IMG/VR virus record: IMGVR_UViG_2531839582_000013
DNA: 4,919 nt
From: a virus
Lineage: Duplodnaviria; Heunggongvirae; Uroviricota; Caudoviricetes
Reading direction: 5' to 3' (one strand)
Under the pieces are notes generated by a model. It did no database searches and was not told the origin of the DNA. It was given only the letters and a program-made list of their open reading frames with translations. Positions 1-4,919 of this stretch are shown here, piece after piece. A program made the position numbers and the translations under genes. The stretch's first letter is position 1. Each line of letters opens with the position of its first letter.

Positions 1-4
1 CCAC

Positions 5-30
5 AAAAAAGCCCGCCTGAACCGGCGGGC
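5..30 (-). terminator. Putative rho-independent terminator downstream of lom
   Basis: Plus-strand stem gcccgcc (11..17), loop tgaacc (18..23), stem ggcgggc (24..30), preceded by aaaaaa (5..10). On the minus strand this is a 7-bp GC-rich hairpin followed by six U, about 25 nt past the lom stop. Confidence 0.5.
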
Positions 31-53
31 TGTCATAACACTGTGTTACCTGG

Positions 54-656
54 CTAATCAGAATTTATAACCAACACCCACGATGAACCGTCAGTGCGCC
101 AGTCACCACTGCCGGAGCCTTCATAAGCAATATCAATGGCCACGGATTCGGTCGGGTTAAACTGCACGCCAGCCCCCCACGCCAGAGACGTGTTGCTGTG
201 GCGACCGTCATCACTTCCGGTCAGCACATCATGCGTTTTCCCCGTATTGTCGGTCACCTGCAGATAATCCCCGGAGAAAGTCGACACACGGCTGTAAGCC
301 ACACCCGCCATCGCATACGCGCTGAACCATTCATTCACGCGCACAGACGGTCCCGCCATCACGCTGAACCAGCGGTTACGCACGGAATCCTCATGCCAGC
401 GGGTATCGCTGTAATGCGTTTTTTGCTCATCTTCAGCGTTGGCATAACTGAATGACGTAATCAGCCCCAGCGTGTCCGTAAACTCATAACGGTATTTCAC
501 GTTAATCCCGTTCAGATTATCGCTGCCGGGAGCGTTCGTACGGGCATGAAGATACCCTGCGCTCAGTGTGGCCTGCTGCTCAGACGCCCATGCAGGCGCA
601 CCGGATACGGCCAGACAGATGGCTGCGGACAAAATGGCTGCATAAACTTTACGCAT
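54..656 (-). CDS. lom: Lom outer-membrane protein (Ail/Lom/PagC family 8-stranded beta-barrel); 3' end frameshifted as sequenced
   Basis: 200-aa ORF with a signal peptide (MRKVYAAILSAAICLAVSGAPAWA) and Lom-family motifs (NGINVKYRYEFTD, WFSVMAGP, AYAMAGVAYSR, AIDIAYEGSGSGDWRTDG). GAGG Shine-Dalgarno 4 nt upstream of the ATG at 656. The last 10 codons are out of frame: the adjacent frame over 58..87 encodes FIVGVGYKF followed by a stop at 58..60, the family's canonical C-terminus. Confidence 0.88.
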   Translation of the reverse strand: MRKVYAAILSAAICLAVSGAPAWASEQQATLSAGYLHARTNAPGSDNLNGINVKYRYEFTDTLGLITSFSYANAEDEQKTHYSDTRWHEDSVRNRWFSVMAGPSVRVNEWFSAYAMAGVAYSRVSTFSGDYLQVTDNTGKTHDVLTGSDDGRHSNTSLAWGAGVQFNPTESVAIDIAYEGSGSGDWRTDGSSWVLVINSD

Positions 657-680
657 AATTACCTCTCGCTTTTCTGCAAT

Positions 681-704
681 AAAAAAGGCGCCATTTCTGG
701 CGCC
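681..704 (-). terminator. Putative rho-independent terminator downstream of J, between J and lom
   Basis: Stem ggcgcc (687..692), loop atttct (693..698), stem ggcgcc (699..704), with aaaaaa at 681..686. On the minus strand this is a hairpin followed by six U, 19 nt after the J stop codon at 724..726. Confidence 0.5.
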
Positions 705-723
705 CGTATTGGGGTTATAAAAT

Positions 724-1743
724 TCAGCTGATACTGATGCCTGCGGTGGCTTTCTTCATCACCACAACCAGCAAATCGCTGATACTTGCTGTGGGATACC
801 AGTCATTTACCAACCATGCTGACACCGAAAACTCCAGTGTCATGTGACCGTGACCGGCAGGCATATCAATAACACCACTGTAAATCAGCGTATTATCCAG
901 CGCGGTACGGTTATAAATTTCAGCACCGTTTTTCCGTACTATCAGACGGCATGAGGAGTAAATATCAGTATGCTCTTTCTCATGTTTAGCGCCGCTGAAT
1001 GCCACCGCCGGAATAACAATCTGCCGGTCAAACGGCTGATCGTCATAAACCCTGACGGTAATGGTTCCTGATGGCCACCGCTCCGGTGCACGGGAGTCCC
1101 GGGGGAAAGCTTTGCCCACTGTTTTAACGAGATCGCCTTCAATCTGGTTGGCGGACAGTTTTCCCAGAACCCGACAGTTCTCGTTAATCGTGACGTTGTT
1201 GAGCGTCCCGGAGTTCGCATTCACGTTACCGCTGATATCGGCATTTTTCGCCGTCAGCCACCCGTCCGGTGTCAGGGAAAATGCCGGAGGATTACCGCCG
1301 CTGGTAATGGTCGGAGCCGTCAGGCGTTTCAGGAACACGTCGTTCATGAATATCTGATCGCCCTGACCAACAAACATTGGTCTTGTGTTGCCATTAGACG
1401 GATCAATAAACGCGATACGGTTAGCGGCAACCAGGAACTGGCTCAGCTTGCCTTCTTCCGTGTCCTCCATGCTGAGGCCAATACCCGCGACATAATGTTT
1501 GCCGTCTTTGGTCTGCTCAATTTTGACAGCCCACATGGCATTCCACTTATCGTTGGCGTCCTTCCACTCTTTCGAAAACTCCTCCAGGTCAGGCGCAAGC
1601 TGACCGTTATCAATCTGCGTCCACAGCTCCTGAGCCAGATGGGTTTTCCCTATCTCGCCTTTGAAAAAATCCAGATAGCCTGATGCATCATCACTCGGCT
1701 GACCGACAGCCTCCACGAATGCCGATTTGCCAACGGTGTTCAC
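724..1743 (-). CDS. J: J C-terminal fragment (receptor-binding end); the open frame actually extends upstream to about 2130 without a start codon
   Basis: 339-codon ORF from a GTG at 1743. It matches the gpJ C-terminal region ([13 protein letters not shown]..., [91 protein letters not shown]). The same frame stays open and J-like up to the stop at 2131..2133. Part of the pseudogene above. Confidence 0.6.
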
Positions 1744-3011
1744 ACTGCGAACGTAAAAATAATAATCATGGCCCGGTTTGATATTGATACTGGCGGCTAT
1801 CCAGTACAGTGCCGTACCAAGATAACGCGCGCTGGTTTCAACCTGCCTGATATCCGCAATCCGTTTTTCCGAGAACCAGAACTCAAACTGTACCGTCGGG
1901 TCATAAACCGCAAGATGCGGCGTGGCGGTTATCTGAAAATAGCCCGGCGTCAGCTCAATCCGCGACGGCGCTGCCGGTGCGGCAATCCGGAACGATACCG
2001 ACGCCGGATCGCCCTGCTGCCCCCACGCATTTACTGCCCGGACTGTCAGCCTGTAGTTCCCCAGCGCCAGTTGTGTGAAGCGGTAAGTGGTTTCCGTCGT
2101 CCGGGCCGTGCTGACCAGCCGCTCACGCCGTCATCCGCTGCCACGGTCAGGCGAAGCAGAAGCTCACGCCCTTCACCACCTTCGGCGTTCCCAGCGGCCA
2201 GACCTGATACTCCCCGCTGTCTGCGGTGACTTCGCGGTCAGTGCTGCACGCTGGCGGCGTGACACCATTACCGTGCCGCTCTGGTCGCCGTCAAAGTGCG
2301 CCCCGTTATCCACGATGGCCTCTTTTTCCGGTACATGCTGCACGGCGGTGATGGCATACGTGCCGTCTCGTTCTCACGGATACTCACGCAGCGGAACAGG
2401 CGCTGGCGCACGTCGGCAGCTTCAGCCCCCAACGCTGTATTCAGCAACGCCGTCAGGAACACGGCTCACTTTCACCTTCACGCCGTCGGTGACGGACTGA
2501 CCTCCACGCTGACCGGATCCCTCCGTCAACCAGGCTTATCAGCGTGGTCCGGAGATGGCAGCGTGATTTCACGGTCGAGCGTCAGCGTCCGGGTCTGGCT
2601 GTTCACCGCCAGCACGCGCCCCCGGTGCGATACCGCATAGTCATCATCGCAGATTTCAATGACATCCCCGGTACATGGCGAAGCCCTTCGCACCCACGCT
2701 GAAGTCCACGGTCTGCGTTTCCAGCAGTTCGTTTTAATCAGCCACAGCCCGGCGCGGTGGCCTGCCCCCGGCTGGTACAGCCAAAGCATCCATCTTCGTG
2801 ACGTTACGACCGTAACGGGCAATGGCCTGCGTTCTCACAAGCTCTGTCGCCGTCTCCCAGCCGTTATTCGGGTCAATCCAGTTCACCTCAACGGCATTAT
2901 GGCGGTCCTTCAGGGCGCTGAAGCTGTAGCGGAACGGCGCCCATCATCCGGCATCACCACATTACTGCGGTTATAGGTCCACACCTTATCGAGGTCGGTC
3001 CTGCACGAACG

Positions 3012-4079
3012 TCAGCGTCTGCCCGTTCCATACCGGCATACAGCGCATCGCGAGCAGAAATCACTGAGCACATCCCACGCCTTACGCTGGTGGTCAGAGG
3101 CATTACAGGTGATGCGCGGCTCCGTGCCGCCAAAACCGTCCGGCACCGACTGGTCGCAGTACTGGCCGATGACATACAGCGCCCATTTATCCACATCTGC
3201 CGCACCAAGACGTTTCCCCATGCCGTAGCGCGGATGGGTCAGCATATCCCACAGACACCAGGCCATGTTGTTGCTGTATGCTGGCTTAAACGTTCCGTCC
3301 CAGATACCGCTGTATTGCCGCGTCTGCGGGTTATAATTCGACGGCACCTGCAGAATACGCCCGCGCAGATGATAATTACGGCTCACCTGCTGGCTGCCGA
3401 ACTGCTCCGAGTCCACCTGCACGCCGACCAGTGCCGTGTTCGGGTAGCACTGTTTCACATCGATAATTTCGGTGTATGACGACCAGAGCGTTTTGTTCTG
3501 CAGCTGGTCTGTGGTGCTGTCCGGCGTCATCCTGCGCATCCGGATATTAAACGGGCGCGGCGGCAGGTTATCCACCACCACCGAGGCCAGATACTGTGAA
3601 GTGGTTTTACCCTTAATGGTGATGTCTTTTTCCGTCACCCAGCCACCGTTACGTTGTATCTGAACCAGCAGGCGGACTTCCGATGGATTCCTGTCCCCCT
3701 TTGAGGTGGTTTCCACCAGTGCCTGCACGCCGAAAGTAAAACGCAGACGGTCAATGTTTGCCGACGTGATGGTCCGGGTGATCGGCGTGTCATATTTCAC
3801 TTCTGTACCGAGCACCGTCTCGGAGCCGGAGGATTCAAATCCCTCCGGCGGTGTCTGCTCCTGCTCACCGGCCCGGAACACCACCGTGACGCCGGATATA
3901 TTGGTATTCCCCTCACTGTCCAGCACCGGCGTACTGTTCAGCAGCACGCTTTTTAATCCATCCACCGGACCTTCAACCGGCCCTTCGCTGATGGCATCGA
4001 TCACACTCAGCAGCTGCGTGGACTTCAGGTTATCTTTCGCTTCGCGCGGGGTATGCCCCTTACTGCTGCCTTTACCCAT
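3012..4079 (-). CDS. J: J N-terminal fragment (intact 355-codon frame ending at the first frameshift)
   Basis: ATG at 4079 with GGAG 8 nt upstream. Begins MGKGSSKGHTPREAKDNLKSTQLLSVIDAISEGP and matches the gpJ N-terminus up to ...KAWDVLSDFCS, then leaves the J frame at about 3050 and terminates at 3012. This is part of the pseudogene above, listed because gene callers will emit it as a separate ORF. Confidence 0.6.
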   Translation of the reverse strand: MGKGSSKGHTPREAKDNLKSTQLLSVIDAISEGPVEGPVDGLKSVLLNSTPVLDSEGNTNISGVTVVFRAGEQEQTPPEGFESSGSETVLGTEVKYDTPITRTITSANIDRLRFTFGVQALVETTSKGDRNPSEVRLLVQIQRNGGWVTEKDITIKGKTTSQYLASVVVDNLPPRPFNIRMRRMTPDSTTDQLQNKTLWSSYTEIIDVKQCYPNTALVGVQVDSEQFGSQQVSRNYHLRGRILQVPSNYNPQTRQYSGIWDGTFKPAYSNNMAWCLWDMLTHPRYGMGKRLGAADVDKWALYVIGQYCDQSVPDGFGGTEPRITCNASDHQRKAWDVLSDFCSRCAVCRYGTGRR

Positions 4080-4101
4080 TCGTCATGCTCCATAAACGAT
4101 A

Positions 4102-4121
4102 AAACCGCCCGGAGGCGGTTT
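4102..4121 (-). other. Perfect 8-bp stem-loop in the I-J intergenic spacer; function unknown
   Basis: Plus-strand aaaccgcc (4102..4109), loop cgga, ggcggttt (4114..4121). On the minus-strand mRNA this is GAAACCGCC-UCCG-GGCGGUUU followed by UAUCGUUUAUGG, then the J Shine-Dalgarno and ATG. Confidence 0.25.
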
Positions 4122-4139
4122 CACATAAAACATTTTGCA

Positions 4140-4811
4140 TCAGCGACCAATCACCACAACCTGACCACCGTCCCCTTCGTCTGCCGTGCTGATCTCCTGA
4201 GAAACCACGCGTGACCCCACGCGCATTTCACCGTACAGAACCGGCAGAACATTGCCCTGGGCAACCATGTTATCCAGTGAGGAGAAATAGGTGTTCTGTT
4301 TGCCGTTATCCGTTGTCTGTGTACGGGGAGTTCTGGCTTTCGGTGCCAGCATCTGCGCCACACCACCGAGCACCATACTGGCACCGAGAGAAAACAGGAT
4401 GCCGGTCATACCACCGGCCCCAATGGCTGCCCCCCATGCTGCAAGGGTGGCTCCGGCGGTAAAGAATGATCCGGCAATGGCGGCAGCCCCCAGGACAATC
4501 TGGAATACGCCACCTGACTTGGCCCCGGCGACTCTGGGAACAATATGAATCACAGCGCCATCAGGCAGAGTCTCATGTAACTGCGCCGTTAACCCGGACG
4601 TGCTGACGTCCCGCCCGGCAATCCGTACCTGATACCAGCCGTCGCTCAGTTTCTGACGAAACACCGGGAGCTGTGTGGCCAGTGCGCGGATGGCTTCAGC
4701 CCCCGTTTTCACACGAAGGTCGATGCGGCGGCCAAATCGTTGCAAATCCCCGTAAAGGCAGATGCGCGCCATGCCCGGTGACGCCAGAGGGAGTGTGTGC
4801 GTCGCTGCCAT
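4140..4811 (-). CDS. I: Tail assembly protein I (lambda gpI-like)
   Basis: 223-aa ORF, the same length as lambda gpI and near-identical by recall (MAATHTLPLASPGMARICLYGDLQRFGRRIDLRVKTGAEAIRALATQLP...). It has a Gly/Ala-rich hydrophobic C-terminal half. The start lies 103 nt inside the 3' end of K and the stop is 60 nt upstream of the J ATG, the same spacing I recall for lambda. Confidence 0.93.
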   Translation of the reverse strand: MAATHTLPLASPGMARICLYGDLQRFGRRIDLRVKTGAEAIRALATQLPVFRQKLSDGWYQVRIAGRDVSTSGLTAQLHETLPDGAVIHIVPRVAGAKSGGVFQIVLGAAAIAGSFFTAGATLAAWGAAIGAGGMTGILFSLGASMVLGGVAQMLAPKARTPRTQTTDNGKQNTYFSSLDNMVAQGNVLPVLYGEMRVGSRVVSQEISTADEGDGGQVVVIGR

Positions 4812-4919
4812 TTGTCGGTATACCTCTCTCGTTTGCTCAGTTGTTCAGGAATATGGTGCAGCAGCTCGCCATCACCACAGTAAATGGCGGCATGATTCGG
4901 CACCGATGAACCAAAACAG
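4709..4919 (-). CDS. K: Tail assembly protein K (lambda gpK-like, NlpC/P60-type C-terminal region); 5' end lies beyond the window
   Basis: The frame is open from the window edge to the stop at 4709..4711. The C-terminal peptide ...VPNHAAIYCGDGELLHHIPEQLSKRERYTDKWQRRTHSLWRHRAWRASAFTG... matches the gpK C-terminus by recall. It overlaps I out of frame. Confidence 0.85.
   Translation of the reverse strand, partial: CFGSSVPNHAAIYCGDGELLHHIPEQLSKRERYTDKWQRRTHSLWRHRAWRASAFTGICNDLAAASTFV

Follow-up and report, generated by a model that had tools for sequence, protein, structure and literature searches.

Missing bases in J and lom of an Escherichia coli prophage contig as a probable collapsed-repeat consensus artefact

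The window, that is, the whole 4,919-nucleotide stretch analyzed here, lacks 38 bases, 37 in the tail tip gene J and one in lom, and every lesion that could be resolved is a loss, with no insertion in either gene. The sequence comparisons presented below indicate that these bases were very probably dropped when near-identical prophage copies collapsed into a single consensus, and are the result of neither gene decay nor a failure of polishing. The J and lom genes of the strain itself are almost certainly intact. The original prediction preferred an assembly artefact in a repeat-collapsed J over natural decay, and this preference is supported by the coincidence of the lesions with SNP columns and by deletions that are not shared between sibling assemblies.

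Exact-protein look-ups led to one contig only, and the window (1..4919) corresponds to the reversed draft contig AQBT01000032.1 (range 1-4919) of assembly GCA_000358555.1. The source strain, the enterotoxigenic (ETEC) isolate E. coli p0305293.10, was identified through the protein records ENG40747.1, ENG40748.1 and ENG40751.1. The minus strand of the window encodes the K'-I-J-lom segment of a lambdoid prophage, and the contig's length of just 4.9 kb fits the expectation for a repeat contig. IGS/GSCID generated the sequences of the P0305293 series within the same IGS ETEC project. The methods text of the project paper (Sahl et al. 2015) reports Illumina HiSeq2000 sequencing at >200x coverage, with Celera Assembler, as the only technology, and the paper's account of the isolates describes those from one case as clonal. 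We infer that these methods hold for isolate p0305293.10 too.

All genes of the window lie on the minus strand. The J gene (tail tip/host specificity) occupies positions 724..4079 and is fragmented, as seen from the open reading frames, the Pfam domains of the fragments and the RefSeq annotation of homologous regions. Its N-terminal ORF (3012..4079) encodes 355 aa, and its C-terminal open frame (727..2130) comprises 468 codons and ends at the stop at 2131-2133, so that the earlier statement of an open C-terminal part of J holds. The J fragments matched FNIII-A_GpJ, Phage_Tail_Tip and Ig_GpJ_C (PF24801, PF09327 and PF12421), and are flanked by I and Lom. We assigned the gene to gpJ on the basis of this GpJ domain set, a length of 1,130 aa once the frame is restored, and the location between I and lom; RefSeq regions that are ~95% identical across the whole window also carry the gpJ annotation. 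The lom gene, coding for an Ail/Lom outer-membrane beta-barrel (PF06316, Ail_Lom), was located at 54..656. Tail assembly gene I is intact (4140..4811; PF06805, Lambda_tail_I) and without indels relative to the allele of ETEC 120899 (L005), the annotation of which supports the assignment. Its longest ORF encodes 223 aa, whereas the RefSeq homologues begin at the equivalent of position 4712, giving 190 aa. According to the annotation of homologous regions, positions 4709..4919 belong to tail assembly gene K, which encodes a C40 family peptidase and of which the contig end leaves just the 3' part. Moreover, two intrinsic-terminator-like hairpins with T-runs were found on the minus strand, one directly downstream of lom (10..31; 8 pairs, 7 GC, tail TTTTTGTGG) and one between J and lom (686..705; 8 pairs, 6 GC, tail TTTTTATTGC).

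The lesions were counted against the nearest intact allele, that of ETEC 120899 (L005). In the central-J patch (2126..3098, minus strand), which we propose to be a stretch of collapsed-repeat consensus, the alignment revealed 37 bases lost in 35 events, 33 of one base and two of two bases, together with no insertions and a single substitution (at 2604). From 3100 to 4919 there were no indels relative to the same allele, and the flanks of the patch match intact alleles from related ETEC strains at ~100% identity. The interval 54-3055, to which the lesions had been assigned, does contain lesions, but its end leaves out the last two events, at 3089 and 3097. Refilling the 37 bases restored a single uninterrupted J ORF of 1,130 aa, with no stops or other damage. 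Indels that appear at 1537..1865 relative to some references fall in a module that diverges naturally; they were put down to noise in the alignment and were not counted as lesions.

The remaining loss is located in the last codons of lom (85..88, minus strand), exactly on an A/C SNP column: the A allele reads GATGAACCCG, the B allele AATGAAACCG and the window GATGAACCG. At this position the contig passes from A-like to B-like SNPs. Lom as read is 200 aa long and, because of the base loss, has an aberrant C-terminus ...DGSSWVLVINSD; refilling with either base gave the canonical 199-aa Lom ending in ...DGFIVGVGYKF. The top matches listed for this stretch in complete E. coli genomes all span 721 bases, versus 720 in the query, and therefore none of these listed matches carries the lom loss.

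The position of the J lesions is far from random. In a small panel of seven J alleles, 97 of 1,008 columns were polymorphic, and 34 of the 35 events fell on such columns, compared with 5.0 expected and a maximum of 18 in 20,000 permutations; the exception was the event at 3089, where the column is not polymorphic in this panel. In an independent panel of 135 IMG/VR alleles, all 35 events coincided with polymorphic columns, against 14.6 expected. Third codon positions accounted for 31 of the 40 polymorphic columns under events. The best single clean allele, that of the sibling isolate p0305293.1 (L142), has a real alternative base for 30 events out of 35, as well as nine further differences at sites where the window has lost no base. 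Combined, the differences of L142 and of copy B of ETEC 120899 account for 33 events, leaving those at 2992 and 3089 unaccounted for by copy A, copy B or L142. No single known allele accounted for all 35 events, and the net score of pairwise unions of alleles was no better than that of L142 alone. Two other candidate partners were rejected. In ETEC L5_E1779 (L230), the third J copy explained 20 events and brought nine extra differences, and the allele of the sibling p0305293.4 (L078) reached an equal fit only when the gaps within it were scored as differences, this being a sibling assembly with the same artefact.

Dense, sharply bordered patches of losses only could also result from indel errors of a sequencing platform, in unpolished long reads or as 454/Ion-type homopolymer miscalls beyond short-read polishing, and in the long-read record of the above L230 genome (NZ_LR883007.1) the annotation marks lom, J and K as frameshifted. 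We nevertheless consider such an origin very unlikely, given that errors arising at random in the reads would have no preference for columns with inter-allele SNPs. The original prediction placed most lesions in short homopolymers, but homopolymers were not enriched: 16 of the 33 single-base losses lie in runs of at least two, where 13.6 were expected (binomial p = 0.38), and runs of at least three hold three losses, with 3.4 expected at random patch positions. The sets of lesions described as compensating turned out to be clustered SNP sites (e.g. 2832/2833/2835 and 2517-2522), and the net loss of 37 bases from J is not a multiple of three. In view of the Illumina-only data and the Celera Assembler reported in the project's methods, the option of an unpolished stretch, or one that escaped short-read polishing, is not applicable.

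The copy number and the distribution of the deletions are informative as well. In complete E. coli genomes the patch occurs at a median of three places per genome and at up to 14, which confirms the multi-copy nature ascribed to the central part of J; in the closest complete relatives, an A-type and a B-type copy occur together. Of the 5,426 complete E. coli genomes searched by megablast with the patch, not one had the deletions, the best identity of 96.4% being explained by the gaps only, and a 50-base probe across several deletions had no exact match in the GTDB representatives. Among ~15 billion proteins, each frameshifted product was confined to contig AQBT01000032.1.

Whether related strains carry the same deletions had been named as a test, and its outcome favours an artefact. 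In the sibling p0305293.4, from the same patient, 36 bases were lost, without insertions, from the same stretch of the B-type J copy but at a different set of sites. Of its 30 events, 22 are common to the window, and it often has the alternative allele where the window is gapped; additional gaps were found at 3100-3700 and 4200-4400. In the sibling p0305293.1, also from the same patient, the J copy represents a further allele, Y, and is free of gaps in the patch. The unrelated draft BCE002_MS12 (L181) showed a set of its own, with 41 bases lost and no insertions, and 24 of its 32 events were on SNP columns. Thus, four characteristics of a collapsed repeat were found here: the stretch is multi-copy, the errors are placed at inter-copy differences, they are not reproduced between assemblies of the same clone, and refilling restores the gene.

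The broken J and the altered C-terminus of Lom would also be compatible with genuine pseudogenisation, in which real frameshift deletions accumulate in a decaying cryptic prophage. In E. coli, broken tail genes are a common feature of cryptic lambdoid prophages. Yet the ratio of deletions to substitutions is 37:1, and insertions, nonsense mutations and larger deletions are absent. Moreover, decay would have to reconcile the near-complete coincidence with SNP columns, the differing or absent deletions in siblings from one patient, the absence of the deletions from the complete genomes and flanks that are nearly identical to intact alleles. We regard this explanation as extremely improbable.

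The match between deletions and inter-copy mismatches, and its variation between siblings, could in principle also be generated by independent recombination. Diverged J copies would recombine, and the heteroduplex would yield a -1 deletion at each mismatch, independently in sibling colonies of one infection, by a mutational process that has not been described. We know of no mechanism that deletes a base at each mismatch; mismatch repair converts mismatches and does not delete them. Under such a process, each tract would have undergone ~36 to 41 -1 events at once, and this in three drafts, two of which are sibling isolates of one project, whereas none of the 5,426 finished genomes contains such tracts. 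The chance that it operated here appears vanishingly small.

In the collapsed-repeat model that we favour, short reads from at least two near-identical lambdoid prophage copies in one genome would have been merged into one consensus. Positions at which the copies agree would be rendered without error, whereas a SNP between them would leave the column without a called base, and the dropped column would appear as a 1-base deletion. Differences between the co-assembled copies would number ~37 within ~1 kb of central J, with one more in lom, and the dense loss-only patch so produced would break an otherwise intact J and change the C-terminus of Lom. We suspect that tied or split columns of the Celera Assembler multi-alignment were called as gaps. 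A literature search for such a conversion of SNP columns into gaps by the Celera consensus step found no description of it and yielded just a general treatment of collapsed repeats with their correlated SNPs; correlated SNP columns supported by equal groups of reads are a documented signature of collapsed repeats (Hawkeye, PMC1868940). We must also note that copies A and B of ETEC 120899 differ at a similar density in 3100-4400, where the window is undeleted, and hence the model requires the co-assembled copies to be identical in that region.

A further irregularity was revealed by comparison with copies A and B of ETEC 120899. At 1588..1589 (minus strand) the backbone of the window switches abruptly and in frame: positions 86..1588 are ~100% identical to copy B and positions 1589..4919 are ~100% identical to copy A. 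The two copies share no more than CAG at the joint, which is a Leu codon when read on the coding strand. Across the joint, the best identity in any complete genome was 90.4%, and the hybrid 24-mer had no matches in IMG/VR, the GTDB representatives or the JGI metagenomes, as compared with at least 120 and 100 matches for the parental 24-mers. The sibling p0305293.4 is pure B across the joint, and p0305293.1 is of the pure long A-type. The junction is probably a chimeric join, i.e. another product of assembly. It is doubtful, though conceivable, that the junction alone is real and that, in one colony, J exchanged its receptor-binding end within the host.

We attach no biological significance to the lesions in J and lom. 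Their practical consequence concerns the public databases: in at least three draft contigs of GenBank/IMG, multi-copy prophage genes contain dense frameshift patches that consist solely of losses; the affected drafts are two sibling isolates of the IGS ETEC project, for which Celera Assembler is reported, and one unrelated draft. Such patches inflate pseudogene counts and seed protein databases with spurious "unique" fragments (ENG40747.1, ENG40748.1, ENG40751.1, ENG74402.1 and EMV34198.1 are those we looked up). In pangenome and phage-host studies they can pass for prophage decay or for chimeric tail-fibre alleles. The coincidence of deletions with inter-copy SNP columns provides a diagnostic that does not depend on reads and could flag similar patches elsewhere.

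In terms of gene order and the GpJ, Lambda_tail_I and Ail_Lom Pfam domains, the window resembles the gpJ/Lom module of phage lambda, and its DNA is 93-95% identical to that of phages, lambda h434 imm21 and 434 among them, in which the genes at the match are annotated as tail tip protein J and Lom. Unlike in lambda gpJ, a B-type C-terminal receptor-binding part is placed on an A-type body, with a joint that was matched nowhere else in the databases searched. Degraded cryptic lambdoid tail genes share with the window the K-I-J-lom neighbourhood and the fragmented J annotation; real decay, however, combines several types of lesion (substitutions, nonsense mutations, insertions, IS elements, larger deletions), which clonal relatives then inherit, and nothing of this kind was found here. 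Errors of unpolished long-read, 454 or Ion data are likewise dominated by deletions, create false pseudogenes and are often worst in multi-copy prophage regions, whereas the present lesions are tied to SNPs, have no homopolymer bias and come from what the project's methods text describes as Illumina short reads. With respect to the collapsed repeats treated in Hawkeye/AMOS (PMC1868940), the difference lies in the outcome: here the split columns would vanish, leaving 1-base deletions and false frameshifts, an outcome not described in that work. In common with them, the copies would have been stacked in one layout with the reads split by column, here in a multi-copy region, on a short contig and with repeat edges.

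Exact protein matches identified the window as the entire draft contig AQBT01000032.1 (4,919 bp; GCA_000358555.1) of Escherichia coli p0305293.10. The P0305293 series consists of ETEC isolates from a Bangladeshi patient (2011), sequenced at IGS/GSCID; for the project data, Sahl et al. 2015 describe Illumina HiSeq2000 paired ends at >200x and the Celera Assembler, and they report isolates of the same case as clonal. The contig is listed for three samples, yet each frameshifted protein has just one accession and one contig; the three are probably one assembly under several labels. The 3′ part of tail assembly gene K lies at the right end of the window, followed by tail assembly gene I (4140..4811), the fragmented J (724..4079) and lom (54..656), all on the minus strand. 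Homologous regions of complete E. coli genomes supplied the labels C40 peptidase (K), tail assembly protein (I), gpJ and Ail/Lom, and the Pfam domains Lambda_tail_I, GpJ and Ail_Lom were found in I, the J fragments and lom, respectively. Strong terminator-like hairpins with a T-run lie on the same strand immediately downstream of J (686..705) and of lom (10..31).

Whole-window matches in complete genomes showed ~95% identity and spanned 4,960 bases, compared with 4,919 in the window. As the reference we used L005 from ETEC 120899, which of the intact alleles is closest to the window in its right-hand part. Against it, 37 bases were gone in 35 events within 2126..3098 (the patch), with no insertions and one substitution, and one further base was absent from the last codons of lom (85-88). 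The original prediction of losses without gains thus held, as did that of an open J C-terminal frame (468 codons). No indels relative to L005 were found at 3100..4919. Ten substitutions relative to L005 clustered in 150 bases (3135..3285), without an indel, look like ordinary mosaic polymorphism, since other complete genomes match 3100..4919 at 99.6% identity. Some references give indels at 1537..1865, but these are noise from aligning a naturally divergent module and not lesions.

The identity of the “deleted” base varied by reference in the first alignments, and we therefore suspected that the losses fall on polymorphic columns. A panel of seven natural alleles without gaps was polymorphic at 97 of the 1,008 columns in the patch, and 34 of the 35 events lay on them (the event at 3089 is in a column without a variant in this panel), compared with a mean of 5.0 and a maximum of 18 in 20,000 random trials. 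In an independent panel of 135 IMG/VR alleles, all 35 events coincided with polymorphic columns (14.6 expected). Third codon positions made up 31 of the 40 polymorphic columns under events. The lom loss sits exactly at an A/C SNP, where the alleles read AACCC or AAACC and the window reads AACC. Refilling the 37 bases turned J into a single uninterrupted ORF of 1,130 aa, and restoring the lom base gave, with either allele, the canonical 199-aa protein with C-terminal GYKF; the damage is therefore limited to the loss of SNP columns. The loss density in the patch, 37 in 973 bases (3.8%), matches the inter-allele divergence of the segment, in which the A-type and B-type prophage copies of J in ETEC 120899 (copies A and B) differ at 42 sites. 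Short homopolymers, to which most losses had been assigned, showed no such association: runs of at least 2 hold 16 of the 33 single-base losses versus 13.6 expected at random positions (p = 0.38), and runs of at least 3 hold three (3.4 expected). Homopolymer error was thus rejected as the cause, and the apparent GG to G contractions are SNP bases adjoining an identical neighbour.

The deletions were absent from 5,426 of 5,426 complete E. coli genomes, where the best patch identity of 96.4% reflected gaps only. Every one of the top complete-genome matches listed was one base longer in lom, a 50-base probe across several deletions had no match in GTDB representatives, and every frameshifted product was confined to AQBT01000032.1. 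We screened ~200 fetched loci for loss-only patches, naming contigs by exact look-up, and two further contigs emerged, each with dozens of missing bases in this stretch and none added. L078, from the same-patient sibling p0305293.4, lacks 36 bases in 30 events, 28 of which lie on SNP columns and only 22 of which are common to the window. It often shows the alternative allele at window gaps, and vice versa, and has extra gaps in two segments that are clean in the window, 3100-3700 and 4200-4400. The unrelated draft BCE002_MS12 (L181) lacks 41 bases, and 24 of its 32 events coincide with SNP columns. A second sibling, p0305293.1 (L142), shows no gaps in the patch, and an actual alternative base is present in it at 30 of the 35 window sites. 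Adding the B-type copy of ETEC 120899, a close relative, raises the coverage to 33 of the 35 events; no single allele accounting for all of them was found. Mutations that were inherited would be the same in clonal siblings, whereas these differ. Our results thus support an artefact of assembly, in a stretch with several copies, over natural decay, through the coincidence of losses with SNP columns, the intact genes on restoration and the disagreement between siblings, which are also the directly observed steps of the mechanism proposed below. The patch is very probably an assembly product and not a real genomic feature.

Aligned to window 1161..4919, L078 is a patchwork. It is B-like at 1161-1800 and 3700-4200, resembles the L142 type (allele Y) in the 1900s and at 4300-4500, and is a mixture interrupted by gaps at 2100-3700, a pattern suggesting three prophage copies blended in its consensus. 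In L142, the otherwise clean J is split into 791 aa and 339 aa because, at its 1409..1417 (window ~1755), GTAAAAATAATAATC in the window corresponds to GTAAAAATATAATC, one base fewer, which may be another consensus dropout. We must also note NZ_LR883007.1 1-7008, from the circular, 46,243-bp “plasmid 2” of ETEC L5_E1779. This match region has a lambdoid tail-gene layout, with frameshifts annotated in each of lom, J, K and the tail-fibre genes. Because the assembly appears to come from a long-read ETEC reference set, the frameshifts probably reflect long-read errors left in the sequence of an excised or induced prophage.

The backbone of the window is itself mosaic: it matches copy B at ~100% identity over 86..1588 and copy A, likewise at ~100%, over 1589..4919. 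At the joint, which lies within a highly divergent segment, a B-type J C-terminal module gives way abruptly to an A-type body, with the reading frame kept and only one codon, CTG (CAG on the window strand), shared by the two. Both parental versions of the region are common. The junction itself was absent from complete E. coli genomes (best identity across the joint, 90.4%) and from IMG/VR, GTDB representatives and JGI metagenomes. Since p0305293.4 is pure B and p0305293.1 pure long A-type across 1588/1589, so that neither sibling contig has the junction, a chimeric join is the probable explanation. A real recombinant unique to the p0305293.10 colony is also possible, because an overlap-based assembler should require reads spanning the join.

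The median number of central-J loci in an E. coli genome is three. The patch most likely arose when prophage copies were collapsed and their SNP columns dropped out; a failure of polishing, as had been suggested, was rejected. AQBT01000032.1 is a short repeat contig, and overlap-layout-consensus assembly stacks the reads of near-identical copies in one layout. Its split columns were evidently called as neither base and dropped, leaving a one-base deletion per inter-copy SNP. Here we infer the exact consensus rule of the assembler; our literature search found no published description of a Celera-type rule that drops SNP columns. Pseudogene and prophage analyses built on such draft assemblies call for caution. 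Columns in which reads split into groups are the known signature of stacked repeat copies (PMC1868940).
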